In this document: positions 5,068 through 60,525 of the stretch, piece after piece | How the letters are laid out: each line of letters starts with the position of its first letter | How positions within the stretch are numbered: position 1 is the stretch's first letter | DNA from: Eubacteriales bacterium | Lineage (GTDB): Bacteria; Bacillota; Clostridia; Oscillospirales; CAG-272 | Direction of reading: 5' to 3' | DNA length: 64,000 bases | NCBI GenBank assembly: GCA_045605175.1 | Contig: JAZUPL010000010.1 | Span: forward strand, 420 to 64,419 | Translations under genes and position numbers: made by a program | The notes under the pieces: generated by a model | Databases searched by the model: none | What the model was told of the DNA's origin: nothing | Seen by the model: only the letters and a program-made list of their open reading frames with translations

Positions 5068-5106
5068 TGTAAACCATTATTTGCGTTATCATTTCCGCCT
5101 TGTCAG

Positions 5107-5179
5107 AAAAACGCCCCATTTTGAAGCGAACCCAAAAGTTTAGACACTTTTGGATGTGCATATCAACAGGGGCGTTTTT
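5107..5179. terminator. Bidirectional intrinsic terminator between convergent genes
   Basis: AAAAACGCCCC ... GGGGCGTTTTT long stem with an inner hairpin CCAAAAGT/ACTTTTGG. A-run and T-run flanks allow termination in both directions. Confidence 0.6.
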
Positions 5180-5217
5180 GATTTGTTATTTACTTTACGG
5201 TTTTATTTCTTAACCGT

Positions 5218-6753: not shown

Positions 6754-7014
6754 AACTCATACTCCTTATTTTATTAAGAACATTTTAACATATTTCTCTC
6801 TTGATTTCAATAGTGTTTGACTAAAATATACAAATCTTCTTTATAAAATTATTTGTTTTTGTTATAATGGCGTTAAATGTAGTTGATTTCTTTTTTGTAA
6901 AAAATTAGGCATCGCGTGACGGATACCTAACCCCAGGCTTTTGCCTTTGGTTTTATCGCTTGCGATGCCTTATTCTATAATAAAATTATGAAAAAGAGAT
7001 TTTTGACGGTAAAA

Positions 7015-28240: not shown

Positions 28241-28261
28241 ATTATCAACTTAATAAATGAT

Positions 28262-28466
28262 AGAGGTGCACTTCACGAAGACTACCGCACAACAAAGGCC
28301 TCCAAGGGCCGTGTGGGAAAGGCGTGGGTGCCGAAGTACGCACCTTTGGAAAGTGCGCGCTGGCTTAATGGATAACATCCTTTTGGCTGTCGTAGAAATA
28401 CGGAGGGCTATCGACTCATAATCCTTTTGATTTTTGGATAGTCGTGCCCTGCGACTATCTTTTTTG
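28262..28466 (+). promoter_or_regulatory. Lysine riboswitch (L-box) with intrinsic terminator
   Basis: L-box elements occur in the canonical order: AGAGGTGCA, GGGAAAGG, GGTGCCGAAG, CTGTCGTAG, GGAGGGCTATCG. They are followed by the hairpin GATAGTCG-TGCCCT-GCGACTATC plus T6, then the dapA RBS. Confidence 0.85.
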
Positions 28467-28526
28467 CTTTAATTTTAGGATTAGCAAGCAGTACTTTGGC
28501 AACCCTTGAAGTCACAAGGAGGAGAT

Positions 28527-29411
28527 ATGAAAAACACGATTTTTACAGGCGCGGCAACCGCAATTATTACCCCTATGAACGAGGTCGGAGTTGACTACGA
28601 GAGTTTTGGCAGGCTTATCGACTGGCAGATAGAAAACGGAATTGACGCTATCGTAGTAGCGGGAACAACAGGCGAGGCATCTACCCTCACCGACGAGGAG
28701 CACAAAGAGTGCATTCGCTTTGCCGTAGAGCGCGTAGGTGGAAGAGTGCCTGTTATCGCGGGTACCGGCTCTAACGATACCGCATACGCAATTGAACTTT
28801 CAAAATACGCCTGCGAGGTGGGTGCCGATGCACTCTTACTCGTTACCCCCTACTACAACAAGGCTACGCAAAAGGGACTTATCGCTTCCTTTACCGCTAT
28901 TGCGGACGCTGTGACAAAGCCCTGTATTCTTTATAACGTTCCCTCAAGAACAGGCTGTAACATTCTGCCTAAAACTGTAAAAGAACTCGCAAAGCACCCC
29001 AATATAGTGGCAATTAAGGAAGCGAGCGGAAATATTTCGCAGATAGCAGAACTCGCCGCATTAGCAGGCGAGGACATAGACATATATTCGGGTAATGACG
29101 ACCAGATTGTGCCTATCCTCTCGCTTGGCGGTAAGGGCGTTATTTCGGTGCTCTCTAACCCTATGCCAAAGGAAACCTCGCTTATGTGCAAGATGTTCTT
29201 TGAGGGGGATATAGCAGGCGCTCGTAAACTTCAACTCGACCTGTTGCCCTTAGTAAACGCACTATTCTGCGAGGTCAACCCCATTCCCGTCAAGGCGGCT
29301 ATGAATGAAATGGGCTTCTGTCAGAATGATATTCGTCTTCCCCTATGCGAAATGGAAGATGAGCACCGCAGGACACTCTGCGAGATAATGAGAGGACACG
29401 GACTTATTTAG
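28527..29411 (+). CDS. dapA: 4-hydroxy-tetrahydrodipicolinate synthase
   Basis: ORF 28506..29411. ATG 28527 follows an AGGAGG RBS. Motifs MKNTIFTGAATAIITPM, GTTGE and YNVPSRTG, plus the active-site Lys context AIKEASG. Confidence 0.95.
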   Translation: MKNTIFTGAATAIITPMNEVGVDYESFGRLIDWQIENGIDAIVVAGTTGEASTLTDEEHKECIRFAVERVGGRVPVIAGTGSNDTAYAIELSKYACEVGADALLLVTPYYNKATQKGLIASFTAIADAVTKPCILYNVPSRTGCNILPKTVKELAKHPNIVAIKEASGNISQIAELAALAGEDIDIYSGNDDQIVPILSLGGKGVISVLSNPMPKETSLMCKMFFEGDIAGARKLQLDLLPLVNALFCEVNPIPVKAAMNEMGFCQNDIRLPLCEMEDEHRRTLCEIMRGHGLI

Positions 29412-33185: not shown

Positions 33186-33259
33186 CTACCCATGGCACAG
33201 CTGGATAGCGCGTCAGACTCCGACTCTGAAGGTCGTAGGTTCGAATCCTATTGGGTAGG
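33186..33259 (+). tRNA. tRNA-Arg (anticodon CCG)
   Basis: Cloverleaf built by hand. Acceptor CTACCCA/TGGGTAG, D-arm with AGCTGGATAG, anticodon stem TCAGA/TCTGA with loop CT-CCG-AC, 5-nt variable loop, T-arm GTAGG-TTCGAAT-CCTAT, discriminator G. No encoded CCA. The sequence was verified against an overlapping ORF-track translation. Confidence 0.85.
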
Positions 33260-33261
33260 CA

Positions 33262-36262: not shown

Positions 36263-36367
36263 ATAGAAGTCGTGTTTACATAAGAATATTACACTTGGTT
36301 TTATTTTGCCGATATTTCGTCTGCTGCGGCTCGTTTTTTCGCTGAGCCTTTATTTTTGGAGAATTTT

Positions 36368-37696
36368 ATGAAGATACAGTTATCCGACCATTTTACCTAT
36401 AAGAAACTGTTCAAGTTTACTCTGCCGAGCGTGGCTATGATGCTATTTACCTCTATTTACGGTATGGTGGACGGCTTTTTCGTTTCTAATTTCGTTGGTA
36501 AAACGCCTTTTACTGCAGTTAATATAATATTCCCTTTTCTATTTATCCTCGGTGCCTTTGGTGCTATGCTTGGCACGGGAGGAAGCGCACTGATTTCCAA
36601 AACTCTGGGCGAGGGTGACAGAGAAAAGGCTAACCAACTTTTTTCGCTGTTTGTTTACCTCTCCTTTGGCGTGGGTGTTATACTTGCCATTATTGCCTCT
36701 ATATTTATCCGTCCTATTGCATCACTGCTTGGGGCTGAGGGGGAACTCTTAGAAAACTGCGTAGTTTACGGGCGAATTATTCTTGTTGCTTTACCCTCGC
36801 TGATGCTTCAGTTTGGTTTCCAAAGCTTTTTTGTCACAGCAGAAAGACCCGGACTTGGCTTTTTTGTAACCGCTCTGTCGGGTATTACTAACATTGTATT
36901 TGACGCTTTATTGGTTGCGATATTCCCTTTTGGTATTGTGGGGGCTGCAATAGCAACCGCTATGAGCCAGGTTGTGGGTGGTATCCTGCCCCTGTTTTAC
37001 TTTTTCTCGAAGAATACAAGCCTACTTAGACTCGGGGGGACAAGGTTTGACGGTGGGGCACTGATACAAGCCTGTCTAAACGGCTCGTCAGAGTTTTTGA
37101 CAAACATAGCGATGTCGGTGGTTAGTATGCTATACAATTTACAACTACTGCACTATGCGGGGAATGACGGTGTGGCGGCGTATGGCGTGCTTATGTATGT
37201 TGGATTTATATTTGTGTCTATGTTTATCGGATATTCGATAGGCACTGCCCCCATTATTGGCTACAACTACGGGGCGAAAAGACAAGACGAGTTAAAAAAT
37301 ATTTTGAGCAAGAGCTTTTGGGTTATCGGTATAACCTCGGTGGCTATGGTGATATCCTCCCTTTTGCTTGCGTACCCATTTTCCTATCTTTATGTTGGGT
37401 ATGACGAGGCACTTATGGATTTGACCTTGCGTGCTTTTGTAATATATTCATTTAGTTTTTTGTTTTCGGGAATTTCTATTTTCCTGTCCTCCTTCTTTAC
37501 TGCGCTTAACAACGGCCCCGTGTCGGCGGCGATATCCTTTATCCGTACGCTCCTATTGCAGATTGTGGCGGTGCTTGTACTACCCTTGATACTTGATATT
37601 GACGGTATTTGGCTGGCTACGGTAGTTTCTGATGGGCTAGCGGCGATTATTTCACTTTTGTTCCTTTTATTTAATAGGAAGAAATACGGGTATTAA
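36368..37696 (+). CDS. MATE-family efflux transporter
   Basis: ORF 36356..37696. ATG 36368 follows a GGAG RBS. It has 12 predicted TMs and the N-terminal pattern FKFTLPSVAMMLFTSIYGMVDGFFVSNFVG, typical of MATE/NorM-like pumps. Confidence 0.85.
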   Translation: MKIQLSDHFTYKKLFKFTLPSVAMMLFTSIYGMVDGFFVSNFVGKTPFTAVNIIFPFLFILGAFGAMLGTGGSALISKTLGEGDREKANQLFSLFVYLSFGVGVILAIIASIFIRPIASLLGAEGELLENCVVYGRIILVALPSLMLQFGFQSFFVTAERPGLGFFVTALSGITNIVFDALLVAIFPFGIVGAAIATAMSQVVGGILPLFYFFSKNTSLLRLGGTRFDGGALIQACLNGSSEFLTNIAMSVVSMLYNLQLLHYAGNDGVAAYGVLMYVGFIFVSMFIGYSIGTAPIIGYNYGAKRQDELKNILSKSFWVIGITSVAMVISSLLLAYPFSYLYVGYDEALMDLTLRAFVIYSFSFLFSGISIFLSSFFTALNNGPVSAAISFIRTLLLQIVAVLVLPLILDIDGIWLATVVSDGLAAIISLLFLLFNRKKYGY

Positions 37697-37713: not shown

Positions 37714-37746
37714 CAAAAAAACCGAGCAAAATGCTCGGTTTTTTGT
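37714..37746. terminator. Bidirectional intrinsic terminator (MATE gene / end of the MoxR-vWA-lipoprotein operon)
   Basis: AAAAAAACCGAGC-AAAAT-GCTCGGTTTTTTG. Confidence 0.8.
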
Positions 37747-37772: not shown

Positions 37773-40700
37773 TTATGCAACCTTCTCGATGATAAGGTCG
37801 ATAGTGTCCTCTGTAAGTGTCATTATTGCAGAGGTACAAATATTAAAGGTTACAGTCTGTCCTGCTTCAAGTGTAAACTCGTAAGGAAGATCTATAAGTT
37901 CATCGATATTAAGATTTTTGACTTCTGCATTTTCCTCACCATCAGCAGCTTTTATAACATAGGTTCCAGCCTCGGTTGCGGTGAAGGTCATATCAACACC
38001 TGCACAGTAGAGGTTTTGTACTGTTACCTTTACAGCATTATCGCCAAGAACAAGTGCGTTTGAAGGAGTTTCTTCTGCATCCTCCTTGGTAAGGACTACA
38101 TCAACGGTATCATCGCCGGAAATTGTGCAGATTATAAAGGTCACAGACTCACCCTCTGCCACGGTGAAGGAATAAGGCATAGAAATAGTCTCTGTTCCAT
38201 ATTCCCCCTCAATAAGAATAAATCCGTTGGTCTCGCCGTCTGCATAAGAAAGGACATAGTCACCTGCGGTATTAACTACCGCAGGAACACCAAAGTAATT
38301 GGCGGGAATGGCGTTTGCACCGACAACGATAGTACCATTAAAGACGCCAGGCTCTGTATCATCGGGAGTTTCTACAACCTTTTCAAGAGCCATAGGCATC
38401 ATAAACATAGGAGGTTGAACGTTCCAGTTGCCACCCATATCCATACCGAAGAAGAAGGGAACGGGATCATTTTTGGCATCCCAGATAGACAAACCGCCAA
38501 GAGAGTTAAGAGCGTATTTATAGGTGCCGGAATAACTGCCGCCATTATAATCAGCAATCTCAACAGTACCGTAGGTCTTGCCCTCTACGGGAGTGAAGTT
38601 GAAGTTCATCATAGGCATATTGGAGAAAAGTGCATTATACTCACCCTCGGGAGGAGTATTGCTGGGAAGTTCCTTGCACTCGATGGTGAAGTCAACGATA
38701 TCCTCGGTTTCGGTCATAACGTTTGCAGAGGTGGAGATACCGAAGGCAACTGTTCCACCATCTTCAACGGTAAACTCAAGGGGAAGGGTTGCTTCCTCAC
38801 CATTATACCAAACAACAAGATTTTCTTCACCCTCAGCAGGAGTAAGTACATAGGTGCCACCAACTGCGAAGTTGATTTCGATTGATTGAGCAAAATTGTT
38901 GATAATGGAAACCTTAATGCTATTATTACCAATCACAAGGTCGCCGATATCGGAGGGGTCGGTGAACTCAATGCTAATCGAGCACTCTTCAGTGCCGTTG
39001 TTTACAACGGTGATAGGATAGCCAGGATAGTAGTTGAATGCCTCGCCACTTTCAATGGGAGCACCGTTTACAAGAATGGAAACATTCTCGTTTTCCCAAG
39101 TGAAGATGTAGGGCTTCAGCTGACCAAGCGTTTCGTAGGTAACAAGAGTGTAGGTCTTGCCGGGGATAAGATTTTGTACATAGTTGGAGCCGAAGCTTGT
39201 GTAAATTTCGTAAACAACTGCCTTTGCAGTGATTGCAACCTCGGTAGCCTCTTCAACATCAGACTTAAGAAGGAAGGAAACGAAGCTGTTTGCTCCTACA
39301 ACAAAGTCGTAGTTGGAAACCCAAGTGATGTTACCCTCGCCGTCGTCAACACCGATAAGGACACCTTCGCCACCGTTTACATAGTAGGTGACGTCTTCAT
39401 CAGAAGTGTTGAAGATAGAGTTGATAACACCGTCGCTGTCAACCATACCAGTAACGGTTCCGCTATCGGTATTGATTACATAGTTGAGATTGGTTATAGT
39501 AAGGGTATCGGTAATCTCGCAGTCAACAAGTGTGGTCTCGAATGTTTCTGCGTTGTATTCCTTGGTGGTGTTGGAAACAAAGATTTCAACAGTTTCACCC
39601 GCGGTCAAGTACTTGGAGATGTAAACAGTGGAGTTTGTAGAAGCGATATATTTAACGATTGTGTCATCCCAATCCACATAAGAATCCAAATATTTAAACT
39701 GGTTGGATTCAAGGGTAAGAACGAAGGAATATACACCAGCCTCGGGAGCGGTGAAGGAAATAAGATTGTCGGTGTTGCTCTTGAAGGTAAGGTTGTTGTC
39801 ACCTGCCTGAACAACGATGGGAGCGAGTTTCTCAACAGTCCAGCTCGCGTTGTAACCTACTGCAAACTCGGTAGAAGAATCAAGATATACGCTAACGGGA
39901 GTTTCGATAATAGCACCTGCCTCGGATACATATACAGTCTGTCCCTGATAAGAGAGATATTCAAAATCGTCGCTCTCCAAAGAGATTTTATACCAACCCT
40001 TTTCGGTAGTTGTGTACTGGAGAACTACCTCCATGTTAGAGGGAAGAACATAATCGGTTGCAGCCTCGTCGATAACGATAGTAGTATCTGCCTCAACAAT
40101 GTAGTAATTGTAAACAAGTTCCTCTATTTCCTCAAATGTCCAGATAGTAGCATTGAGAGTAACTTCGCCTGCCTCCTCAACTTCAATCTCGAGAACACGC
40201 ATATAGTTAAACTCAACCTCAGGAACATCAGAATATACATAGAATTTTCCTGCTTTGGGGAAGTTAATGGTAACTTCGCCACCGTAGGTCATGTTGGCAA
40301 TAAGTTCGCTGATAACGCCCTCACCGGTTGCTATCTCGTCAACAAATACGTACTTTTCCTTGGTAAGGGTAACCTCGGAGTCTTCGTTTACAGAGGTAAC
40401 CTTGAACTTGTAGGTTGCGGTGTCGCCATCTACGGTCTTCTCAACAAATTCTGCGCCCCCGGCAAAGAGAAGGTATTTGTTAGATACGCTTGCAGTGAAA
40501 ACAAGGTCTGTACCGGTCTTTGCGGTGAGGTTTTCGGATACGGTAACGCCCTCGGGAGCGTTTACTGTAACTGTGTCACGGGTGAAAAGGGTGTAAAGAC
40601 AAGTGTCGCACTTGCCGTTATCATCCGTGTCGGTGTGGGCAGCAAAATCTGCCTTTTCTGTGGTGTGCTCACAAGTTGCGCCGTGCCAGTGACCGGTAGC

Positions 40701-40817
40701 GTCTGCCGTCCAGTTAGAAGCAAAGGCGTGCTCGTGAGGAGGTGTGGGTGTGCCGCAAGATGCAAGTATGAAGGAAAGCAACATTGCGACTAAAACCAAA
40801 GTAGCAATTTTTTTCAT
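37773..40817 (-). CDS. Large surface lipoprotein with N-terminal His/Cys + DxDxDG-like motif and three C-terminal ~90-aa repeats
   Basis: 1014 aa. Lipobox MKKIATLVLVAMLLSFILASCG, then HEHAFASNWTADATGHWHGATCEHT...HTDTDDNGKCDTC. Three C-terminal repeats start LVIGNNSIKV, IVVGANAIPA and LVLGDNAVKV, each with ...G.Y.L...GEEN...F.V..G.TV.F. AGGAGG RBS, 35 nt after the upstream gene. Confidence 0.75.
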   Translation of the reverse strand: MKKIATLVLVAMLLSFILASCGTPTPPHEHAFASNWTADATGHWHGATCEHTTEKADFAAHTDTDDNGKCDTCLYTLFTRDTVTVNAPEGVTVSENLTAKTGTDLVFTASVSNKYLLFAGGAEFVEKTVDGDTATYKFKVTSVNEDSEVTLTKEKYVFVDEIATGEGVISELIANMTYGGEVTINFPKAGKFYVYSDVPEVEFNYMRVLEIEVEEAGEVTLNATIWTFEEIEELVYNYYIVEADTTIVIDEAATDYVLPSNMEVVLQYTTTEKGWYKISLESDDFEYLSYQGQTVYVSEAGAIIETPVSVYLDSSTEFAVGYNASWTVEKLAPIVVQAGDNNLTFKSNTDNLISFTAPEAGVYSFVLTLESNQFKYLDSYVDWDDTIVKYIASTNSTVYISKYLTAGETVEIFVSNTTKEYNAETFETTLVDCEITDTLTITNLNYVINTDSGTVTGMVDSDGVINSIFNTSDEDVTYYVNGGEGVLIGVDDGEGNITWVSNYDFVVGANSFVSFLLKSDVEEATEVAITAKAVVYEIYTSFGSNYVQNLIPGKTYTLVTYETLGQLKPYIFTWENENVSILVNGAPIESGEAFNYYPGYPITVVNNGTEECSISIEFTDPSDIGDLVIGNNSIKVSIINNFAQSIEINFAVGGTYVLTPAEGEENLVVWYNGEEATLPLEFTVEDGGTVAFGISTSANVMTETEDIVDFTIECKELPSNTPPEGEYNALFSNMPMMNFNFTPVEGKTYGTVEIADYNGGSYSGTYKYALNSLGGLSIWDAKNDPVPFFFGMDMGGNWNVQPPMFMMPMALEKVVETPDDTEPGVFNGTIVVGANAIPANYFGVPAVVNTAGDYVLSYADGETNGFILIEGEYGTETISMPYSFTVAEGESVTFIICTISGDDTVDVVLTKEDAEETPSNALVLGDNAVKVTVQNLYCAGVDMTFTATEAGTYVIKAADGEENAEVKNLNIDELIDLPYEFTLEAGQTVTFNICTSAIMTLTEDTIDLIIEKVA

Positions 40818-40852
40818 AATAGCCTCCTATATATTTTTTTGGTTTTTCAAGT

Positions 40853-42427
40853 TTAGGTGCTACTCTTTACATAGTAGCCACAGGCGAATAGCCATTGGTC
40901 GTCTTCACCTGCGTGGTAGGGGGGATCGGATTTAAGTTCTGCCCAGCCGTTGCCGTCCATAAAGTATCTCTGCGAAACGGCAAACTTCTGTAGGAAGTCC
41001 TTAAGTTCCTCGGTTACAGGACAGAGTCCGTCGGTATTTGCAACACCTGCATAACCAACGCATCCTATTGCCTCGGCGGGCACCTTTCTACACTCGTCAA
41101 GACAACGGGTACAGGTCAAGGGGCATCCACCGTCACAGACACCACTGGTTCGACAGGGGCAATTCCTGTTGCAAAGATAGGGTCCTGTGGTTGCCTGGGG
41201 GTTGGTTTCGAGGGGATCTACTGTTAAGGGATAGTAGCCCTCTATAAACAGTTTATAATTTTGGGTGCCGTTTTCCACCGTCAAAGCCTTGTTTCCTGCC
41301 GCCTCTATGAAATTAAAGGGGGCGTCGGTAAAGGATGTGGGGGAGGTGATATGGGCGTAAAGAATAGGTCCAAAACCATTTGTTTCGGGGTAGGCTTCGG
41401 CATCATAGACGTGATAGAAGCCTGTATCGGGATTTAGTTTATAAAAATCGTCCTCAAAGATGTTTTGTCCTCCTATGTTCTTCTCTGCCCCGACAAATAC
41501 GTAGTCGTCACCGTACTCGTGGCCGGGTTTGTAACCCGTCACCTTGTCAAGTTCGGTGGGGACTATGATATCCGAGGGGATACCCGTCGAATCATACTCG
41601 CCCTCATAGGTAAGGCAGAAGTCAACATATACAGGATAGTCGCCGTCGGTGATATCCGCCTTGATACCGTAGGCGTAAACGACTCCACCACCAGAGGCGG
41701 AAAGGTTGGAATCGTCAACATAGACCTGGTATTTGAAGTTGGAGGTAAAGCCCGAACTTCCACCGTCAACAATGATGGGTGTGGGATTTTTCCAGGCAGC
41801 CGATCCCTCGTGGATATGTAGAATAGGGTTTACGTTATTGTAGTTTACATCAACCCAAGACTCTACCGAATATGTACCACTCGCGGTGGGGGCAAACTGA
41901 TAATAGACCACCTGCCCTGCCTTTTTAATAGTGGCACGGTAAACACCCGGACGAGTTATTTCTATAATGTTTTGATACATATTAGAACCCGTCTTCTTGC
42001 CCGTGTCTATTATCTTATAAATCTGGATCTTCACGTTCCTTTGGTCATTGGTCGCCAAGGTCTGGTTGGGGTTGTAGGTATAGCCCTCGGGCAGGTTCAA
42101 AAGCGTGACGGCAAAGTCACCGTCAAGTCCCTTTACCTCTGCCCTTCCCTCTCTGTCAATTTCTGAGGTGTAGAAGGTGTAACCGTCCGACCACTGTGCC
42201 CGTGTTACCGTGTTTTCGTAGTCGGCAGGAATAAACGGTGTACCGTTGTATTCAAGTTCAACAGTAAAGGTGTATCCCTCGGTGGTGTTTCCTCCACCTT
42301 CGCCCGTCGGCGGGTTTGTTTGACCACCACCGTTTCCGTGGTCGGGGTGTGGAGTCTGTACCGTAGCACAGGAAAAGAGAGCAAAACACAGCAAAAGCGA
42401 GAGAATATTAAATAGTATCTTCTTCAT
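40853..42427 (-). CDS. Surface lipoprotein, paralogue family with Cys-rich segment and C-terminal CPVTEELK...WLxxCxYY motif
   Basis: ORF 40853..42481. ATG 42427 follows AAGGAG, which directly follows the upstream stop. Lipobox MKKILFNILSLLLCFALFSCA. It has an Ig-like N-terminal domain (YTFTVELEYNG...LLNLPEGYTY) and a Cys-rich stretch CNRNCPCRTSGVCDGGCPLTCTRCLDEC. The C-terminus reads GLCPVTEELKDFLQKF...DDQWLFACGYYV. Confidence 0.75.
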   Translation of the reverse strand: MKKILFNILSLLLCFALFSCATVQTPHPDHGNGGGQTNPPTGEGGGNTTEGYTFTVELEYNGTPFIPADYENTVTRAQWSDGYTFYTSEIDREGRAEVKGLDGDFAVTLLNLPEGYTYNPNQTLATNDQRNVKIQIYKIIDTGKKTGSNMYQNIIEITRPGVYRATIKKAGQVVYYQFAPTASGTYSVESWVDVNYNNVNPILHIHEGSAAWKNPTPIIVDGGSSGFTSNFKYQVYVDDSNLSASGGGVVYAYGIKADITDGDYPVYVDFCLTYEGEYDSTGIPSDIIVPTELDKVTGYKPGHEYGDDYVFVGAEKNIGGQNIFEDDFYKLNPDTGFYHVYDAEAYPETNGFGPILYAHITSPTSFTDAPFNFIEAAGNKALTVENGTQNYKLFIEGYYPLTVDPLETNPQATTGPYLCNRNCPCRTSGVCDGGCPLTCTRCLDECRKVPAEAIGCVGYAGVANTDGLCPVTEELKDFLQKFAVSQRYFMDGNGWAELKSDPPYHAGEDDQWLFACGYYVKSST

Positions 42428-42438
42428 TTTTTCTCCTT

Positions 42439-45072
42439 TCAAACTCTCTTTTTCCTGAACAGTGTGGCTATGTCTGCCCATTTTACCTTGCGTATTATGA
42501 CGTCAACTACAAAGAGAATGACTGTCAGGACAAACAGGGGTACGGTAAAATCGACAACATAGGTAGTCAGGCTGTCGGTATCATACTCGTATGTGGGAAT
42601 TTCGCCCTCGGTTATCTGTCCACGATTCTTTATTGCTCTATACAAGAGGGTGGGCGAATAGGTGGCAAAACTGTCGTGCTCTGTGTGATATGAGAGGTGG
42701 ACAAATCTCTGTGCCTCGTAGGTCTTGTCAGAATAGGAATAGGTCAAATGAATAGTGTAATTACCAATATCCGAAAGTTCAAATCTATAAAAATATTTAG
42801 TTGAGTCAAAGGTAAGGGGATATTCAAACTCCTCGCCCGTGGGGGTGGGCAACTTCAATATTGCCACAGCATCAGGCTTTAGTGTGGCGGGGATAAGTTC
42901 CACAAGAGCACTCGTGCCCTCGCCGGTAATATTAAGGTCAAAGGGAACGTCTATCTTCTCCTGGGGAATAGTTTCTTTGGCTATATTTGAGAAGAAGTTA
43001 GCACCCTCGCCCTCTTGCCATAGCGACACCCAGTCGCCACTCAATGAGGAGGTAAACACCGCCACCTTGCCGTTTCCGTAATCCGAATGGGCATATAGAG
43101 GCACTTCGACAACACCTCCACCCGCCTTTACATAATCGACGGTCAATACCACGGTGGCATTGTTCTTGGCTTTCGTATTCACAAAGCCAAAGACGTTAGG
43201 CAGGATTAATATTCCATCTACGGTGGCGTCACTCAGACGCTTTATGTGGACTTGGCTCTCTTTCTCAATAACGCTCTCGGTCAAGTCGTCTGCTATCTCG
43301 GAGGAGAACTGGTCCTCGAAACTTTCGGCACTTTCGATATAGTAGTAATTACCACCACCTGCCTCGGCGATGCTTTCCATCATCAATATGGCATCGTCTT
43401 CCTTGCTGTAAACGTTTATAGTAGAAACGGTGATACCGCCAGCAAGCATATTTCGTGCCGTGCCTACCGCTCCGTCCTCCTCGGAGGTCTTTATGTATGA
43501 CAGACCGTCGGAGATAAGCACGACCTCTTTATCACTGTAATCAAGGTCCACCATAAACTCGTAGGCTCTATCCATAGCAGAGCCAATAAGCGTACCCTGA
43601 TAAGGCTCGAGGGCATCTATTTTTGAAGCAAGTTCCCCTCGATTTGCTGCCTCTGTTGGCAGGGAAACCGTATATTGCTCTCCCCAGAAGGCTATTATAG
43701 CCACCTTGTCGTCATCCTCAAGGATGTTAAGCAGCGATTTTGCCGCGTCCTTGGCAATTTTCATTCGATAGGCAAGTTCCATACTGCGGGACATATCTAT
43801 AAGAATAGTCATCAGTTTGGTGTCCTTTTTATCGTTGCCAAAGGATACGGGAAGCATATTTTGTAGGTTTACAAGTACGTCATCGGTCTTGTTTTGTATA
43901 TTGTTGTTACCAAAGGTTACAAGGCTCTTGCCAAATAGCGAAACAACCTTGTCAACGCTATTAACAAAAGAGGTGTAGTTTGTAAGTTCACGAACGTCCA
44001 CGTCCGAGATAAGTATTTCGTCATACTTTGAAAGGGCCTCTACGGTATATGGAACGTCCTTGCCACCCTTTTTGTTTATGTTATAGACGTCTATGGTGGC
44101 ATTCTCGCCAAACATTCTGCGTGCCGCGTCGCTATCGCTTGCGTGGGATGTGACAAGCAATACCGACAAATCACCCGACACGCTCTGGGTAAAGGAAAGC
44201 GAATTGTTATAGAGCGATTTGTCCTCCTCGGCACTTACTGACACGGTGTATAAAAAGTCGCCGTCGGTGTCGGTGGGGAGGGTAAAACTCTCAAGGTTAA
44301 AGCCCCTTGTGAGATTAGCGGTGCGCACCTCAAGTTCTTCCTCACCCAGCGAGAGGGTTATTATACATCTGCCGGAATAATTTGACATCAAGAGCACTTC
44401 GGCAACCGACTCGTGTCCTCGATATGTCGCTTCGGTATAGTCAACCGAGGAAACCTGGACCTCTTTATCATCTTCGCCGATATTGCTATCAAGGTAGATA
44501 GCATCAAGGGTCACTCCCGAAGCAAACAGGTTATCCACCGTGCGGACAAGTGCTGAATCCTGTCCTGTGGCATTCTGCCCTGCGTCGGTGATAAGGATTA
44601 TTCTCTTTATAGAATTTTCGGAGAAGAGTTCGGAGGCATATTTTAGTGCCGAATTAATATCGGTGGAGGTGCCGTCCACGGCAGAGTGGCGAACGCTTCT
44701 GATATTTTCGTCAAAGCCACAAAGCAGCTCACTGTCCCTGCCAAATGTGACCACCGCCAAGCCGGAATTTCCTATCAAGGAATCCTTGATGTCCTGAACG
44801 TATCCGTCTATCTTATCAGAGTGAGTTTTTGCAGAATCCGAGGTATCTGCCAATACTATAACCTCGGTCCTCGTTATGACACTTGTAAACACCGTACCCG
44901 CCATAGCGAGGGTGACACAAAGCACCATACAAATATGAATTATAAAGGATGTTACGGTAGCACGTGAACGGTTATCCCGTCTTACGGCGATGATGTACGG
45001 AATAACAACCGCAAGAAGAAGCGGTATGGCTACAAGGAGCAGAATTGGATTATCGAAGTTGATACTTTTCAT
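42439..45072 (-). CDS. Membrane protein with BatA_N-type N-terminus and two vWA domains
   Basis: ORF 42439..45117 (TTG). The ATG at 45072 gives MKSINFDNPILLLVAIPLLLAVVIPYII (BatA_N-like). MIDAS-type DxSxS motifs are LADTSDSA and LIDMSRSM. C-terminal TM PLFVLTVILFVVDVII. Confidence 0.8.
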   Translation of the reverse strand: MKSINFDNPILLLVAIPLLLAVVIPYIIAVRRDNRSRATVTSFIIHICMVLCVTLAMAGTVFTSVITRTEVIVLADTSDSAKTHSDKIDGYVQDIKDSLIGNSGLAVVTFGRDSELLCGFDENIRSVRHSAVDGTSTDINSALKYASELFSENSIKRIILITDAGQNATGQDSALVRTVDNLFASGVTLDAIYLDSNIGEDDKEVQVSSVDYTEATYRGHESVAEVLLMSNYSGRCIITLSLGEEELEVRTANLTRGFNLESFTLPTDTDGDFLYTVSVSAEEDKSLYNNSLSFTQSVSGDLSVLLVTSHASDSDAARRMFGENATIDVYNINKKGGKDVPYTVEALSKYDEILISDVDVRELTNYTSFVNSVDKVVSLFGKSLVTFGNNNIQNKTDDVLVNLQNMLPVSFGNDKKDTKLMTILIDMSRSMELAYRMKIAKDAAKSLLNILEDDDKVAIIAFWGEQYTVSLPTEAANRGELASKIDALEPYQGTLIGSAMDRAYEFMVDLDYSDKEVVLISDGLSYIKTSEEDGAVGTARNMLAGGITVSTINVYSKEDDAILMMESIAEAGGGNYYYIESAESFEDQFSSEIADDLTESVIEKESQVHIKRLSDATVDGILILPNVFGFVNTKAKNNATVVLTVDYVKAGGGVVEVPLYAHSDYGNGKVAVFTSSLSGDWVSLWQEGEGANFFSNIAKETIPQEKIDVPFDLNITGEGTSALVELIPATLKPDAVAILKLPTPTGEEFEYPLTFDSTKYFYRFELSDIGNYTIHLTYSYSDKTYEAQRFVHLSYHTEHDSFATYSPTLLYRAIKNRGQITEGEIPTYEYDTDSLTTYVVDFTVPLFVLTVILFVVDVIIRKVKWADIATLFRKKRV

Positions 45073-46918
45073 AGCAATATACCATCCAATCCAGCGAGAA
45101 TAACAGGGCGAGTGCAATAAACAGAATAGTCAGGTTATCAAGCACTCCGTCAATCCCCCCCTCGTCTGCCTGTCCGACAAGACTAACCTCGCCACCCTCG
45201 GTATAGGGCGATCGCTCGGCTATCGGGAAGGAGGAGAAAATGAAGTAGTCACGCTCGTTACCCGCCGTGGTAACGGTGACTTTATATATACCTGCCTCGG
45301 TGAGTCTGTGCTCTGCCGTGGCGGAGGTAACATCAAGATAGGTCGAGTTGCCAAGAGGACTCTCGACAACTATGCTCTCGCAACCTGATATTACATTGAC
45401 GGTGAGGGTGTCACCGGTGGTGTAGTCGGTCTTCTCAAGCACGGTGGGGAAAGAAAACTCAACAAGGTTGCGTGTAAGGACTACAAAATCGTAGAGCATA
45501 GGGAAATTCGACTTTTGCAGGTCGAAGGCAAACACCACCTCACGATTGCCGTAATCGTTAGTTCCTGTGAAAACAACGGGGTTGCCCTTATGCTCAAGCA
45601 GAGTATAGAAGTTGTCATAAAGGCTACACTTTATAAACTCGGTTAGATAGATATCCTTGCCGTTCATTTCACGAAGAAGATTTTTTACCGTGGTGGCAGA
45701 GGAAGTAGAGAGAGATATCTCCATAGCGTCCTCAGGAGAATATGCGTCCTGAACCGAGAAGCCAGAGCCAGAAAGACTGTCAGTGGGGTTGAAGAACCAA
45801 ACCGCACCGTTTTTCGGCATTGACGAGGGCGTAAAGCCGTCAAAAATGTAAAGGTCGTAGCCGCTCTGCTCCTTGTAGGAGTTGGTGGGAATACAATCGA
45901 CGAAAATATGTCCGCTGACTGCGGTGATTGCGGTTTTAATATAGAAAGGATCGTTGCTGACAAGAAGAGCACGATAGGAGTTTGCGGAGTCCACGTTGTA
46001 GAGTATAACCTCGTTGTCCTCCAAAAGCGAGTCTTCTCTCTCTATACGCACCCTTACCGAATGGAACTCTTCTTTTTCCACTCTTAACTCAAAGGGCACT
46101 TTTTCGCCCTCAATAAGCGTTACTTCAAGTGTGGTGTCAGGCTCTCTTTCGCTATTTGCGTCCTGGACGGTGGGATAGACGGTGAGCGAGAGGGTGACAG
46201 TTCCCTCCTCCCCATAGGACATAATTTCGCCAAAGACGCTAACACTATTACCTCGAACCGTGTAATAAGCACCCTCGATAGCAAGATTGCTCTCGTCCAA
46301 GGCGGGATTTATGTGGTTTATACCCTGCCCTACCTGATAATTTACATCGCTGACAAGATAGGTTATAACCGATGGGTTTGTATTAAAGTAGCCCTGGGCT
46401 ATTCCTATGGCATCGGTTATTTCAACAGTGCTATGCTCTGTGCCAATTCTATCGAGCAAGAGAAGTGCCTCCTCCTTGTCGGTGAGTGCCTCAAATACAA
46501 CCTCGGTAGAGTCCGCCGCGTGGATAAGAGTATATGTGCTTCCCTCGGTGGCATCGTCAATTATTTCGGCAATTCTGTCCTTGCCTATCTCAAATCGGGT
46601 TTGTTCGCCCTCTCCCATATTCATGCTGCCTGAGCCGTCAAGTATAAAGCAATATTCGTGTGCCTGCCCAGGAAGAATTATGATAGGGTGGGCAATTGAT
46701 AGGGAAATGGCTGCAACAAGCAATAGTTGCAAAATGAGCGAGATAATTCCCGACAGACGGCTCAAGGGATTTCTACGCTTTAAGAACTTCTCGCTAAGCG
46801 TCCACAGATAAGTAGTGGGGATAACCTGCTCGGTGAATTTGTTTTTAAGAATATAGACCAAAATAAGCACCGGAATGCCTATAAGTCCAAGCAAGCCTAA
46901 AGGATAAAGAAAGGTCAT
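45050..46918 (-). CDS. BatA_N-domain membrane protein with one vWA-like domain
   Basis: 622 aa. MTFLYPLGLLGLIGIPVLILVYILK (aerotolerance-regulator N-terminal motif), a second TM, MIDAS-like ILDGSGSMN, and C-terminal TM LTILFIALALLFSLDWMVY. ATGA overlap with the DUF58 stop. Confidence 0.8.
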   Translation of the reverse strand: MTFLYPLGLLGLIGIPVLILVYILKNKFTEQVIPTTYLWTLSEKFLKRRNPLSRLSGIISLILQLLLVAAISLSIAHPIIILPGQAHEYCFILDGSGSMNMGEGEQTRFEIGKDRIAEIIDDATEGSTYTLIHAADSTEVVFEALTDKEEALLLLDRIGTEHSTVEITDAIGIAQGYFNTNPSVITYLVSDVNYQVGQGINHINPALDESNLAIEGAYYTVRGNSVSVFGEIMSYGEEGTVTLSLTVYPTVQDANSEREPDTTLEVTLIEGEKVPFELRVEKEEFHSVRVRIEREDSLLEDNEVILYNVDSANSYRALLVSNDPFYIKTAITAVSGHIFVDCIPTNSYKEQSGYDLYIFDGFTPSSMPKNGAVWFFNPTDSLSGSGFSVQDAYSPEDAMEISLSTSSATTVKNLLREMNGKDIYLTEFIKCSLYDNFYTLLEHKGNPVVFTGTNDYGNREVVFAFDLQKSNFPMLYDFVVLTRNLVEFSFPTVLEKTDYTTGDTLTVNVISGCESIVVESPLGNSTYLDVTSATAEHRLTEAGIYKVTVTTAGNERDYFIFSSFPIAERSPYTEGGEVSLVGQADEGGIDGVLDNLTILFIALALLFSLDWMVYCYEKYQLR

Positions 46919-47802
46919 TTCAGCACCTCCCTCTCGGTGAGCGAGCCGAAGAACACCTCAAACAGTTCGTCCTCTGCCGTCACTAATTGATAGGTTGCAC
47001 CTCTTGCCTCGCAATATCCTCTGATACGCCCCTTGACGTATTCGAGGGCACTCTTGTATGCCGCCGTGATGTCGCCGTCGATATCCTTCCTGTACTCCTT
47101 TGTTATATCCTCGGAGTCGAAGAAATGATATTTACCGCGGAACTGGGGCTTTTGCTCCTCGCGTGAGAGTATTTGAAGACAGAGAAGATCCCTGCGTTTA
47201 GTTACAAGGTGGTCTATCGCCGTTTCATAATCGCTGTCGGTGAGGAAGTCGGAGATTACAACCGAAAGTCCGTCACCGTATCCCACCGAGGTGGGTAATA
47301 TGGCATCGGATATGGCACATTCGCCGTCAAACTCGACACCGTTCAAAAGACCTATGGAGTTTATATAAGAGTCCTTGCCTATCATACCGGATATGACTTC
47401 CTGCACCTCATTACCCTTTATGGTATAAATAGAAACCTTATCCATCTCGCATATAGAGATGTAGGCGAGGGCGGCGGCAATCTTCACTGCCTGCTCTGCC
47501 TTCTTGCCGTCACCGTATTCCATTGAACGACTGGCATCTATGTATATTCTTGTGTGCATCTGTCTTTCGTCAAGATAGAGTTTTACATAAAGTCTGTCAA
47601 ATCTTGCAAAGGCATTCCAATCTATCCTGTCGGTGTCATCTCCCGCCATATAGTCACGATAATCGGCAAACTCGCAGGACGAGCCGTAACTCTTACTTCG
47701 TCTGTTGCCGCCAAAGACACCTGCTATATTGTTGCAGATTACCGTTTGTAGGCTCTCAATCTTCGCAATAAACTCCTCGTCTATTACAAATTTATTTCTC
47801 AT
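46915..47802 (-). CDS. DUF58 domain protein (MoxR partner)
   Basis: 295 aa. SCEFADYRDYMAGDDTDRIDWNAFARFDRLYVKLY is the DUF58 signature, and the vWA-like IDASRSM follows. Confidence 0.88.
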   Translation of the reverse strand: MRNKFVIDEEFIAKIESLQTVICNNIAGVFGGNRRSKSYGSSCEFADYRDYMAGDDTDRIDWNAFARFDRLYVKLYLDERQMHTRIYIDASRSMEYGDGKKAEQAVKIAAALAYISICEMDKVSIYTIKGNEVQEVISGMIGKDSYINSIGLLNGVEFDGECAISDAILPTSVGYGDGLSVVISDFLTDSDYETAIDHLVTKRRDLLCLQILSREEQKPQFRGKYHFFDSEDITKEYRKDIDGDITAAYKSALEYVKGRIRGYCEARGATYQLVTAEDELFEVFFGSLTEREVLK

Positions 47803-47813
47803 ATATAGAAGAA

Positions 47814-48794
47814 TTACCTCTTGATTTCTTTGATAAGCATTGCAATAACGTCATCGGTAGAGAGATGATCGTTTACTGCATTAAAGTTTACCTTGATTCT
47901 GTGGCGAAGTACAGGCACGGCAAGGGCTGCAACGTCATCAAAGGATACGTTGTAACTGCCTCTTACAAGTGCGCGCACCTTGGCACAGGTGATAAGAGCC
48001 TGTGCGGCTCTGGGCGAGGCACCGTACTTGATGTACTTTCTGGCAACCGAGGACGCATTTTCAAGTTCGGGGTGAGTGCCTGCTACAAGATTAGCCGCAT
48101 AAAGGACAACCTCATCTATAACAGGAACGGTGGAGGCGAGGTCACGCATATCCAAAATCGTAGGCCCGTCAATAACCGCATCTGCGTTCTCGCCCATGGT
48201 TACCTGTGTCATATTTACAATATCGACAATTTCGCTTGCCGTGGGGAATGTCATTATCAGTTTGAAGAAGAAACGGTCCATCTGTGCCTCGGGAAGAGGA
48301 TATGTACCGTCCTGCTCTATCGGGTTCTCGGTAGCAAGAACGAAGAAAGGCTCGTCAAGCGTGTAGGTTGTGCCGCCTACGGTAATCTTATGCTCCTGCA
48401 TTACCTCAAGCATGGCAGACTGCGTCTTGGGGGTAGCACGGTTTATCTCATCGGCGAGTACCAAATTAGCAAAGATAGGTCCGCGGCGGAAGATAGAGTT
48501 CATTCTTCCCTCCGCATCCTTTTCGATAATATTAGATCCGGTGACGTCCGAGGGCATAAGGTCGGGGGTAAACTGTATTCTCGAAAACGGGAGGTTAAGA
48601 ATACGGCTAAGAGAACGGACAAGTCTGGTCTTACCTACTCCGGGGACACCCTCAAGAAGAACGTTACCACCTGCAATAATTGCAATAATAATGTTCTCTA
48701 CTACCTCATCCTGTCCTACTATATCCCTACGAAGTTGCTCTTTTATTGACTTTATTGCTTCGCTAAACTGTGTTATTCTTTCTGTATTTTCCAT
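47814..48794 (-). CDS. MoxR-family AAA+ ATPase
   Basis: 326 aa. Walker A GVPGVGKT, Walker B LADEINRATPKTQSAMLE, and PEAQMDRF typical of MoxR/AAA_3. Confidence 0.93.
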   Translation of the reverse strand: MENTERITQFSEAIKSIKEQLRRDIVGQDEVVENIIIAIIAGGNVLLEGVPGVGKTRLVRSLSRILNLPFSRIQFTPDLMPSDVTGSNIIEKDAEGRMNSIFRRGPIFANLVLADEINRATPKTQSAMLEVMQEHKITVGGTTYTLDEPFFVLATENPIEQDGTYPLPEAQMDRFFFKLIMTFPTASEIVDIVNMTQVTMGENADAVIDGPTILDMRDLASTVPVIDEVVLYAANLVAGTHPELENASSVARKYIKYGASPRAAQALITCAKVRALVRGSYNVSFDDVAALAVPVLRHRIKVNFNAVNDHLSTDDVIAMLIKEIKR

Positions 48795-48809
48795 TGTAAA
48801 AACCTTTCT

Positions 48810-50237
48810 TTATTTCATTTCCTCGGGTGTAAGGAGCAGGTCGAAATATTTTCTCGCTATTTCGGCAATCTCCTCGGATATCTCGCCCGACTGGTTGTCA
48901 AATATCGTGTAGTATTTATTGATGACTTCTTTGTATTTCGTAATCATATCAAGGTCGGGATCGTAAACCGAATCGTCACTGCCCACCATATTGTCACCCG
49001 AGCCATAGCCTCCGGTATTGTCACCGGTCAGGTCATCGTTGTTATCGTCATCGGGAGGTGTAACAGGTGCGTCGGTATCCGTCGAGGGCGGAGGCTCTAC
49101 TCCCTGTTCGGTAAGTTCGTCATCCGTTATCGAGAATATCCTGATTATCTCATTCATTGCGATGTTGGATATGCGCTGGTTGTCGGACTGCTGTAAAAAC
49201 GCAAGCGAAGTCGCAGCGCTTACCTCCTCGCACAAGTCATCAAGGTCGAGTGAGCCGCCGTCAAGGATATTGTTTATCCCATTCGCAAGCATAAGCATCG
49301 AGGCATAGAGGGCGTCCTCGTCGCTTGAAAGCGAAACCGATGATAGCGCCGAGGAAAGTTTGCTTGCGTACAGTGAAAGGACAATGCTACTGTCGGAGGC
49401 AGAGTCCACCGCGTCTATCAAATCCACAAATGCGTCAGTGAGCGTACTGTCAGAGAGTTTGGCTACCGCGTTACCGATAGTTTCAATTACCGCGTCGCCA
49501 CTTCCAAGAAATGCACGGGAAATAGATTCCGAGGAGTTGTACTCCAAAAGCATCGCTTTAATTTTTTTGACAGTATCTATTGCCGATGCCTTCATTTTAG
49601 GCTCTTCCTCGGTGCTCTCGATAGCGTCTATCAAATCTTCGATATTATCTACTATCCCATCGCGAAGCCCCTCTTCGGCAAACCTGTCAGAAGACACTCT
49701 CGTGATAAGTTGTTTAAGTTCAGCAATGCGCCAATTCTTCTCGTAACCGTCTATTATCGGGATCTCGGGCAATTCCTCGGCAACCGCGGGAACTACTATT
49801 CCGCACACGATAAACGAAAGGGCAAGAACGAGAGCCACGCAGGATGCCCAAATACGCTTGAACTTTATGGCGGAGTCGGGAATCTCGGCCATTCTACGTT
49901 CGGCGTCCTGTCGCTGAACTTCCACCATAGCGCCACTTTCGCCGACATAGGCAAGCATCGTCTGTGCCCTCTCGCCAAGTCCAAACTCATCATCTATGTA
50001 TCGTGCGACACGACGACGGCTCGGGCGAATAATAAGAAACAAAACGCCACCGACCAAAAGGGCAACTCCAAGACCTATTAAAGCAGAAACAAGCGGACTC
50101 AATACTATTATCTCTCGCTTTGAGAGTATCCACAAAAGAGCAAATATGGACACCCCACAAGATGCTCCGTATATACAAGACTTGATAATTGCGAAAAACA
50201 TAAGACGCCTACCAAATCTATTTAATCCGTCACTCAT
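48810..50237 (-). CDS. Three-TM membrane protein with long acidic Ser/Asp-rich extracytoplasmic region (possibly DUF4175-like); first gene of the MoxR operon
   Basis: ORF 48810..50252 (TTG). ATG 50237 follows AAAGGA. It has two N-terminal TMs, then RRRVARYIDDEFGLGERAQTMLAY, a third TM, a helical acidic region and a P/D-rich tract. The C-terminus reads KYKEVINKYYTIFD...ARKYFDLL. Confidence 0.6.
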   Translation of the reverse strand: MSDGLNRFGRRLMFFAIIKSCIYGASCGVSIFALLWILSKREIIVLSPLVSALIGLGVALLVGGVLFLIIRPSRRRVARYIDDEFGLGERAQTMLAYVGESGAMVEVQRQDAERRMAEIPDSAIKFKRIWASCVALVLALSFIVCGIVVPAVAEELPEIPIIDGYEKNWRIAELKQLITRVSSDRFAEEGLRDGIVDNIEDLIDAIESTEEEPKMKASAIDTVKKIKAMLLEYNSSESISRAFLGSGDAVIETIGNAVAKLSDSTLTDAFVDLIDAVDSASDSSIVLSLYASKLSSALSSVSLSSDEDALYASMLMLANGINNILDGGSLDLDDLCEEVSAATSLAFLQQSDNQRISNIAMNEIIRIFSITDDELTEQGVEPPPSTDTDAPVTPPDDDNNDDLTGDNTGGYGSGDNMVGSDDSVYDPDLDMITKYKEVINKYYTIFDNQSGEISEEIAEIARKYFDLLLTPEEMK

Positions 50238-50357
50238 TAAAAATCCTTTCAAAATAATAAATAAAAATACATAATTATATTATTTTAATATTTTAACACA
50301 TAAGTGAACAAAAGTCAACGGATTGCGAGCAAAAAAGCTCGTTTTATATTGTTTTTT

Positions 50358-50396
50358 ATAAAAACAAGGCGCTCGCACCTTAAACGCGAACGCCTT
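50358..50396 (-). terminator. Intrinsic terminator after the mscS-like gene
   Basis: The minus strand reads AAGGCG-loop-CGCCTT followed by GTTTTT. Confidence 0.65.
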
Positions 50397-60372: not shown

Positions 60373-60525
60373 GGGGCTTGTTGATTTAGTGATATGTTTT
60401 TTATATACAAACTTTTTAACGAATTGTAAAAAGAAGCATTAAAGCGAGTTTAAGGTTGACAAATGTCAAAATATATGATAGCATAATGTGTGTATTATTT
60501 TGTAAAAAATTTTAAGGAGATATAT

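Follow-up and report, generated by a model that had tools for sequence, protein, structure and literature searches.

Operons that combine a MoxR-type AAA+ ATPase and a DUF58 protein with proteins carrying von Willebrand factor A (vWA) domains, referred to here as Bat-like, are widespread in bacteria, and their clients and mechanism are enigmatic; the aerotolerance role that was reportedly first proposed for the Bat operon of Bacteroides fragilis failed to reproduce in Leptospira. The Bacteroides-type gene set, also found in Leptospira and Borrelia, consists of MoxR, DUF58, a hypothetical protein, BatA, BatB, BatC (tetratricopeptide repeats, TPR), BatD and BatE (TPR). In the Mxa system, MxaR is the MoxR ATPase, MxaS the DUF58 protein, and MxaC and MxaL are vWA proteins. 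MoxR ATPases work with vWA co-chaperones, and the metal-ion-dependent adhesion sites (MIDAS) bind extended acidic peptides (PMC7159879); with these co-chaperones the ATPases mature dedicated complexes (PMC7159879; PMC12657314), and the Mxa proteins are reported to support insertion of Ca2+ into the periplasmic methanol dehydrogenase (PMC12657314; PMC10171618). The bifidobacterial PFNA cluster comprises pkb2, fn3, aaa-atp (of the MoxR MRP subfamily), duf58 and tgm (PMC8430577). Here we analyse a seven-gene cassette, g1 to g7, in a 64,000-nucleotide stretch of DNA from a Eubacteriales bacterium of the clostridial lineage CAG-272 (assembly GCA_045605175.1, contig JAZUPL010000010.1, positions 420 to 64,419; hereafter the window, in whose numbering positions are given). 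The cassette belongs to the Bat-like class of MoxR (MRP-type)-DUF58-vWA systems and is a variant of it found in Firmicutes, neither a canonical Bat operon nor a new kind of system; it joins the Bat-like core to lipoproteins. In the open-access literature we found no description of the Firmicute cassette, of g1, of g6, or of the His/Cys module described below. The genes and the two Cys-rich elements within them are as follows:

48810-50237, minus strand: g1, acidic membrane protein of 475 aa (isoelectric point, pI, 4.2), first cassette gene in 64 of 64 loci
47814-48794, minus strand: g2, MoxR-type AAA+ ATPase of 326 aa (AAA_3, E 2.1e-60, 202.8 bits, cut-off 27)
46915-47802, minus strand: g3, DUF58 protein of 295 aa (PF01882, E 3.1e-27, 95.6 bits, cut-off 23.4)
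45050-46918, minus strand: g4, protein of 622 aa anchored at both ends, with BatA_N at residues 1-78 (PF07584, E 5.4e-11, 43.2 bits, cut-off 25.9)
42439-45072, minus strand: g5, protein of 877 aa anchored at both ends (VWA_2, E 4.7e-21 in two stretches; VWA, 3e-15; VWA_3, 1.1e-11)
40853-42427, minus strand: g6, lipoprotein of 524 aa with lipobox LFSC (Cys20), the conserved sixth cassette gene
41090-41173, minus strand: Cys-rich insert of g6, residues 419-446, CxxxCxC...CxxxCxxCxxxC, with eight Cys that are invariant in 27 closer relatives; retained by most of the family
37773-40817, minus strand: g7, lipoprotein of 1014 aa with lipobox LASC (Cys21) and a pI of 4.05
40593-40736, minus strand: His/Cys module of g7, residues 28-75, about 48 aa, present in one copy

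The evidence that these genes belong together is their arrangement in other genomes. One genome per GTDB species was scanned with an alignment of g6, which identified 176 species, and 80 loci, labelled Clostridia, Eubacteriales, Oscillospiraceae, Christensenellaceae, Erysipelotrichaceae or Bacilli, were taken for comparison; all synteny counts are accordingly seeded by g6 and read outward from it. Genes g1-g2-g3-g4-g5-g6 are colinear on one strand in all 64 loci that have at least 8.2 kb of upstream sequence (tblastn); a g5 homologue ends no more than 400 nt from g6 in each of the 76 loci with any upstream sequence; and the overlap of g4 with g5 is identical in 75 of 75 loci. Chance cannot explain an arrangement that recurs in 64 of 64 related loci. 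It is retained at considerable divergence, the median identity to the window proteins being 27% for g1, 73% for g2, 63% for g3, 45% for g4, 44% for g5 and 39% for g6; even P0292, a distant g6 relative that ranked 150 in the exhaustive search, is part of such a cassette, and a very distant g1 relative (P0129) sits in the same gene order. No gene family recurs upstream of g1 across the related loci, indicating that the cassette starts at g1. The preliminary description of this DNA would be refuted if the lipoprotein genes were not conserved beside the MoxR and vWA genes in any relative. Such conservation holds for g6, and for the position of g7, since an ORF (open reading frame) of at least 500 aa is among the first two after g6 in 57 of the 61 loci with at least 3 kb of downstream sequence, and 52 of these 57 ORFs carry a lipobox; it does not hold for the sequence of g7. 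We conclude with considerable confidence that g1 to g6 form one Bat-like functional system.

Comparison with the Bat operons reveals the same core order of MoxR, DUF58 and two membrane-anchored vWA proteins, one of them with a BatA_N hairpin (as in a Parabacteroides comparator), and in both systems the vWA domains face outward from the cytoplasmic membrane (here by prediction). Unlike the Bat operons, the cassette has neither the TPR proteins BatC and BatE, both present in the Parabacteroides comparator, nor BatD; no TPR or BatD match was obtained in the seven proteins with Pfam or NCBIfam, in agreement with the absence of TPR/BatC-E genes that had been claimed for it. At 622 and 877 aa, g4 and g5 are two to three times longer than BatA and BatB (about 330 aa) and have a second, C-terminal anchor, and g5 also has a second vWA domain and a GATase1-like domain; the acidic g1 with its three transmembrane (TM) helices and the two lipoproteins have no Bat counterpart, and the host is monoderm. 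In size and domain content g4 and g5 are closer to a long form found in Planctomycetes, Deinococcus and other phyla: a Planctomyces plasmid encodes DUF58, a BatA-domain protein of 730 aa, a VWA protein of 818 aa and hypothetical proteins of 744 and 542 aa, and in Deinococcus a hypothetical protein of 477 aa encoded directly 5' of MoxR has an N-terminal layout weakly similar to that of g1 (hhalign probability 55%, E 1.2e-4), with two TM helices and then, ahead of a third, the cytoplasmic segment 'A..LD...L'. Profile comparison of g1 with the 744-aa Planctomyces protein was not significant (probability 3%). The long-form loci of Planctomyces and Deinococcus, annotated as domain-containing or hypothetical proteins, have no g6 relative and no attached lipoprotein genes. 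When annotated plasmids were searched with tblastn, g5 returned isolated vWA-domain matches only, and DUF58 was the more useful query.

Three further groups of systems resemble the cassette in part. Like Mxa, it would combine cytoplasmic MoxR and DUF58 proteins with membrane vWA proteins and an extracytoplasmic client, a likeness of description and not of sequence; the Mxa client is a known pyrroloquinoline quinone (PQQ) enzyme encoded in the same cluster, whereas the candidate clients here are lipoproteins that do not look enzymatic. Like PFNA, it is a Gram-positive gut MoxR-DUF58 pair in fixed order with a secreted beta-sandwich protein (FN3 in PFNA), and components of PFNA are also species-specific and fast-evolving (PMC8430577); PFNA differs in that its membrane partner is transglutaminase-like instead of a BatA-type vWA protein, in having a Ser/Thr kinase, and in lacking g1, g6 and the His/Cys module. 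The RavA-ViaA, NorQ-NorD, CbbQ-CbbO and CoxD-CoxE pairs likewise consist of a MoxR hexamer and a MIDAS-containing vWA adaptor that mature a dedicated target complex, except that their adaptor and target share one side of the membrane, their ATPases are of other MoxR subfamilies, and they have no DUF58.

Two proteins of the core, g2 and g3, were originally identified from the sequence alone as a MoxR AAA+ ATPase and a DUF58 protein, and the Pfam matches (AAA_3 and DUF58, as listed above) bear out both identities. In g2, presumably cytoplasmic judging from its sequence, AAA_3 is accompanied by AAA_lid_2 (Pfam, E 1e-16, 60.8 bits, cut-off 22.7). The protein is extremely constrained: across 69 sequences, conservation reaches at least 97% at 152 of its 326 positions, among them the Walker A motif GVPGVGKT (G49-T56) and the Walker B motif LADE (D115-E116). 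Among solved structures the nearest is 2R44 (E 1.4e-70, aligned over residues 6-324 of 326), a member of the MoxR-proper subfamily. The DUF58 protein, encoded 11 nt directly downstream, has no predicted TM helix and no match in a sequence search of the PDB; it has a vWA-like MIDAS, D89-x-S91-x-S93, of which D89, S91 and S93, together with S184 and D185, are at least 97% conserved in 71 sequences, and it is presumed to be the cytoplasmic vWA partner of MoxR. A secondary match of g2 to the bpMoxR model (7.1e-14) might point to an anti-phage or conflict system of the MoxR-vWA 'ternary system' type, in which a variable component such as g7 would not be out of place, as diversifying conflict systems have one (PMC7159879). 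This reading is extremely improbable: AAA_3 scores far above bpMoxR, no effector, protease, nuclease or STAND domain is detected by Pfam, the context is one of chromosomal housekeeping genes without island features, and the cassette is conserved in a vertical-looking manner across whole clades. PADLOC was negative as well, giving for g2 only weak matches of a generic AAA+ kind and none for the remaining six proteins, and we reject the reading.

In g4, a BatA_N two-helix hairpin is followed by a vWA domain (VWA_2, E 5.5e-10, Pfam), a long ectodomain, a C-terminal TM helix and the cytoplasmic tail DWMVYCYEKYQLR; NCBIfam adds a weak match to TIGR02226 (two_anch). In g5, the order is an N-terminal two-helix hairpin, vWA 1, vWA 2, a GATase1-like domain (PF07090, E 8.6e-8), which the preliminary description had not mentioned, and a C-terminal TM helix. 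That description had assigned BatA_N plus vWA to g4, which Pfam supports, and BatA_N plus a double vWA to g5, of which the double vWA stands (VWA_2, 4.7e-21) and BatA_N does not (E 0.46, 11.4 bits against a cut-off of 25.9, covering part of the model only), the likeness being limited to the topology of the hairpin. All of the vWA-like regions are detected by hidden Markov models (HMM), and the MIDAS motifs of the four vWA-type domains (one each in g3 and g4, two in g5) are intact in at least 97% of about 70 species. In g4 this level of conservation applies to D94-x-S96-x-S98 and D191; in g5, among 76 sequences, it applies to D76-x-S78-x-S80 of vWA 1 and to D426-x-S428-x-S430, T494 and D522 of vWA 2. 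It applies equally to two short cytoplasmic elements of g4, the loop E30-F45 and the tail W611-R622.

The topology of g1, g4 and g5 was predicted from hydrophobicity and the positive-inside rule, and g4 and g5 come out with the same layout: N-terminus outside, hairpin with a basic cytoplasmic loop, acidic ectodomain, C-terminal helix and basic tail. The three vWA domains of g4 and g5 and the GATase1-like domain would then lie outside the membrane, a location that agrees with the experimentally mapped topology of a relative, Borrelia BB0173, whose vWA domain faces the periplasm (PMC5700661). Extracytoplasmic vWA domains with an intact MIDAS are also what would be expected of a host- or substrate-adhesion organelle, with integrin I-domain-like adhesins, the hypervariable g7 as its antigenically variable tip, and MoxR controlling adhesion from inside. 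The Borrelia vWA protein BB0172 binds integrin alpha3beta1 (PMC5700661), the vWA lipoprotein CglB of Myxococcus is described as a gliding adhesin, and PFNA couples MoxR-DUF58 to a secreted FN3 protein for which binding of TNF-alpha has been reported (PMC8430577). We nevertheless consider adhesion unlikely as the function of the cassette, as g4 and g5 are anchored at both ends near the membrane, beneath a monoderm wall, so that their reach to external ligands is doubtful, and a Pfam scan of the cassette found no cell-wall anchoring, SLH or sortase signals.

The head protein g1 has no Pfam or NCBIfam match, and the DUF4175 identity suggested for the locus is rejected for g1: HMM searches found no such match in g1 to g7, nor in 25 homologues of g1 at E<=0.1. 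The N-terminus of g1 is predicted to be inside and to be followed by three TM helices, the second and third separated by a basic cytoplasmic segment (residues 70-128), and then by an ectodomain of 320 aa with a pI of 4.05, which by this topology would be outside the membrane, beside the lipoproteins. In an alignment of 25 homologues the cytoplasmic segment is conserved, with A78, D82, T93, Q108 and R109 invariant, and the ectodomain has a conserved C-terminal motif, GSDD...YGEVI...YF..L. A profile search for distant relatives of g1 returned 9 proteins only, TM and low-complexity words dominating the word index. In a Bacilli-type g1 (L076, positions 603-2099), an insertion, HVDNDNDGYCDICN, is present at the start of the ectodomain (alignment columns about 190-205); it corresponds to the C-terminal half of the His/Cys module, elsewhere seen only in lipoproteins. 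Just 5' of g1-like genes, an ABC-2-type membrane protein gene is found in a distant cassette on a metagenome contig (L081, positions 404-1375), and genes for ABC substrate-binding, permease and ATP-binding proteins on a Deinococcus aetherius plasmid (L086, positions 4345-6848); g1 has no ABC-transporter neighbour in the window or in the 61 close loci.

Lipoprotein g6 belongs to a large family: hundreds of full-length homologues, all unnamed, come from uncultured Clostridia, and the exhaustive profile search found 810 clusters (50% identity), of which 350 have E<=1e-30. Lipidation is predicted, the lipobox residue C20 being invariant in 27 of 27 sequences and at least 97% conserved in 79. Searches of Pfam, NCBIfam and the PDB gave neither a family nor a sequence relative for g6. 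Ig-like and PPC-like folds had been claimed for both lipoproteins. For g6 the AlphaFold model (pLDDT 77) and Foldseek agree with the claim, the N-terminal half matching prealbumin/Ig-like and other beta-sandwich proteins (DUF3823), along with the PPC-like binding modules of the ColG collagen-binding domain and the Clostridium perfringens enterotoxin C-domain; for g7 the model is too poor (pLDDT 56) to sustain it. The C-terminal half of g6 has no structural relative by Foldseek and no sequence relative in the PDB. The model thus points to beta-sandwich folds of the binding type in g6, with nothing that marks it as an enzyme. An Fe-S or other essential metal centre, a candidate raised by the CxxxCxxC spacing of the Cys-rich insert, is ruled out as a family-defining feature of g6, because deep-branching members are without the whole insert.

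The Cys-rich character of g6 and of the g7 module could also be taken to indicate an aerotolerance or oxidative-stress system that would let strictly anaerobic gut Firmicutes withstand oxygen, in which the lipoproteins are redox-active partners that, for example, handle reducing power at the surface. Genes g2 to g5 are homologous to Bat-operon components, the hosts are gut anaerobes according to their record titles, and genes of the BB0173 region respond to oxygen level (PMC5700661). This is a decidedly unlikely explanation, given that BatC, BatD and BatE are absent, that deep-branching g6 proteins are missing the insert, and that no thioredoxin, peroxiredoxin or cytochrome domain is found in the cassette by Pfam or NCBIfam. 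In addition, a study of Leptospira biflexa from which all bat genes had been removed reports no oxidative-stress phenotype (PMC3557215).

Lipoprotein g7, for which lipidation is also predicted (C21 is invariant in 8 of 8 sequences), has no Pfam or NCBIfam match and 21 detectable homologues only, with full-length matches only at 58% identity or above. Its AlphaFold model, built from 8 sequences, has a pLDDT of 56 and a predicted TM-score (pTM) of 0.31 and is all-beta at low confidence; Foldseek matches to CUB, macroglobulin and cupredoxin repeats have TM-scores of at most 0.16 and were discarded as unreadable beyond 'all-beta, multidomain'. The recurrent element is the N-terminal His/Cys module, with the consensus HxHT[FY]..W..D...HWH.A.C.H...H.D.[DN].DG.CD.C and no Pfam or NCBIfam match. 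It is encoded downstream of g6 in 58 of 65 loci (tblastn), and 1 to 8 tandem copies occur at the N-termini of large lipoproteins in the g7 position (L004, L006, L013-L015, L023, L057 and others). The DxDxDG-like half of the module looks like a calcium-binding loop in its sequence. Presence of the Cys-rich insert in g6 tracks presence of the module downstream (54/1/4/6, Fisher p 1.7e-5), a co-occurrence that offers a weak hint of partnership between g6 and g7. In some relatives (L005, L007, L009 and L011, at about 13.8-16.6 kb), the C-terminal repeat region of g7 is a separate gene of about 280 aa. An additional lipoprotein of about 450 aa comes next, and in L009 and L011 it too begins with the His/Cys module; species thus differ in how many lipoprotein genes they have after g6.

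Alternatively, the lipoproteins may be independent surface proteins (adhesins, or nutrient or glycan binders) that share a transcription unit with g1 to g5, the latter having a Bat-like envelope or stress role of their own. The rapid divergence of g7 and its scarcity of homologues are in keeping with this, as are the binding-type beta-sandwich features of g6 and g7 and the occurrence of the His/Cys module in a GH43/GH3/ABC sugar-utilization locus and in a dockerin protein. For g6, however, the gene has never been seen apart from g5 (76 of 76 g6-seeded loci, and also P0292), it starts 11 nt past the g5 stop codon with its own ribosome-binding site, and its linkage is held down to 34% identity, which would be unexpected of a passenger gene. 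For the two lipoproteins together we regard this explanation as unlikely; for g7 alone it is quite possible.

The mechanism that we favour, to which we assign a probability of roughly 0.45, is the following. A MoxR hexamer would use DUF58 as its vWA adaptor and engage conserved cytoplasmic elements of g1, g4 and g5; ATP-driven remodelling would be relayed through the double membrane anchors to the ectodomains; the external MIDAS sites would bind acidic peptide segments of g1, g6 or g7; and a surface complex organized around the conserved lipoprotein g6 would thereby be assembled or switched, in which the fast-evolving g7 would face outward as an exchangeable partner or client. If other MoxR-vWA pairs, Mxa among them, are a guide, the system may serve to mature or dock these His/Cys/Asp-rich lipoproteins in a metal-dependent manner. 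The short cytoplasmic parts (the g4 loop, the g4 tail and the g1 segment) are among the best conserved, as would be expected if MoxR and DUF58 engage them. The idea of the preliminary description, a MoxR-chaperoned, MIDAS-dependent assembly of a membrane and lipoprotein surface complex, fits this topology, and we infer such an assembly rather than observe it. A more specific version, a trans-membrane 'inside-out' machine of monoderms in which the MoxR-DUF58 motor pulls the conserved cytoplasmic loops of the doubly anchored, integrin-I-domain-like vWA proteins, switching the external MIDAS sites, and so loads metal onto, docks or releases fast-evolving His/Cys-rich lipoproteins organized by g6, is rather doubtful.

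Several observations weigh against the proposed mechanism. No system of this kind is known to offer a route by which a cytoplasmic AAA+ ring could act on ectodomains. The Cys-rich insert of g6 is absent or reduced in the deep-branching loci L068-L070, L072, L074-L078 and L080, which argues against an essential metal centre there; the sequence of g7 past its N-terminal module is not conserved; and the statistic relating insert to module rests on very few independent evolutionary events, its exceptions clustering in one or two clades. The module also occurs beyond the cassette, in a protein (P0148) of the above-mentioned GH43/GH3/ABC sugar locus (L082) and in a protein (P0150) with Big_2 and dockerin domains (L083). 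All 80 related loci are from metagenome-assembled genomes, with no cultured carrier among them. Weak promoter-like matches exist within the operon, and the bat genes of Leptospira are described as having independent promoters (PMC3557215). Separately, occurrence of the module in unrelated loci rules it out as a docking tag exclusive to the cassette.

The boundaries of the operon are marked by three predicted elements:

50290-50318, minus strand: promoter-like site TTGACT-17 nt-TAAAAT with an extended -10 TG, matching the consensus at 10 of 12 positions and predicted from that match only
50366-50396, minus strand: terminator of the upstream MscS-family gene (14 pairs, 7 G-C, T-run; folded), which is the upstream operon boundary
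37716-37744, minus strand: intrinsic terminator 3' of g7 (13-pair hairpin and T-run; folded), bidirectional

The promoter-like site is 52 nt 5' of the g1 start codon, and the terminator on the g7 side is shared with a convergent MATE-family (MatE) gene on the plus strand (36356-37696). An ORF check of the window found seven head-to-tail ORFs, all on the minus strand, from 37773 to 50237, and together with the boundary elements these substantiate the original account of seven minus-strand genes between a promoter region and one strong terminator. The junctions from g1 to g7 measure 15, 11, -4 (ATGA), -23, 11 and 35 nt, exactly as that account had them, the 23-nt overlap being that of the g5 start with the end of g4, and all of the motifs that it quoted (GVPGVGKT, LADEINR, DWNAFARFDRLYVKLY, IDASRSM, ILDGSGSMN, LADTSDSA and LIDMSRSM) are present in the translations. 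Shine-Dalgarno-like sequences precede g1, g2, g3, g4, g6 and g7, with none at the overlapped start of g5. No strong internal terminator separates the lipoprotein genes from the rest or occurs elsewhere in the operon, where terminator-like matches are weak (5-8 pairs, 3-4 G-C). Internal promoter-like and terminator-like matches, all weak, are each about twice as numerous as in shuffled sequences; internal promoters are therefore possible, and co-transcription is predicted. Antisense ORFs at 38886-40793 (plus strand, 635 aa) and 47865-48749 (plus strand, 294 aa), wholly inside g7 and g2, appear to be shadows of the coding strand and have no support as genes.

The composition of the operon shows no anomaly, its GC content being unremarkable within the window, and the neighbourhood consists of chromosomal housekeeping genes, including uvrA, uvrB, argS and a lysine riboswitch before dapA; in view of the normal composition and these neighbours we reject an origin in a mobile element. 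The lysine riboswitch (28253-28418, 84.6 bits) is directly 5' of the DapA (DHDPS) gene (28506-29411) and further plus-strand ORFs. Elsewhere in the window are a single tRNA-Arg (CCG) gene (33186-33260); an ORF of 1139 aa (60490-63909, plus strand) whose sole Pfam match is AhpC/TSA (redoxin) at residues 186-322, oversized for a protein of the peroxiredoxin type; and a 984-aa protein (660-3614, minus strand) in which BspA-type leucine-rich repeats (LRR_5, 7.6e-195) make up nearly the whole length, a kind of surface protein typical of gut anaerobes.

The cassette links a Bat-like core to a strictly co-inherited extracytoplasmic lipoprotein, g6, and to a variable lipoprotein slot, and thereby provides concrete candidate clients. 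In monoderms such as these hosts, prediction places every vWA/MIDAS domain of the membrane proteins on the side where the lipoproteins are. Three unannotated families are defined, namely g1, g6 (at least 350 clusters at 50% identity) and the repeated His/Cys module, which are common in uncultured Clostridia and Bacilli of the animal gut and absent from Pfam and NCBIfam. If true, the 'inside-out' version of the mechanism would supply the missing client and output for the whole Bat-like MoxR-DUF58-vWA class.

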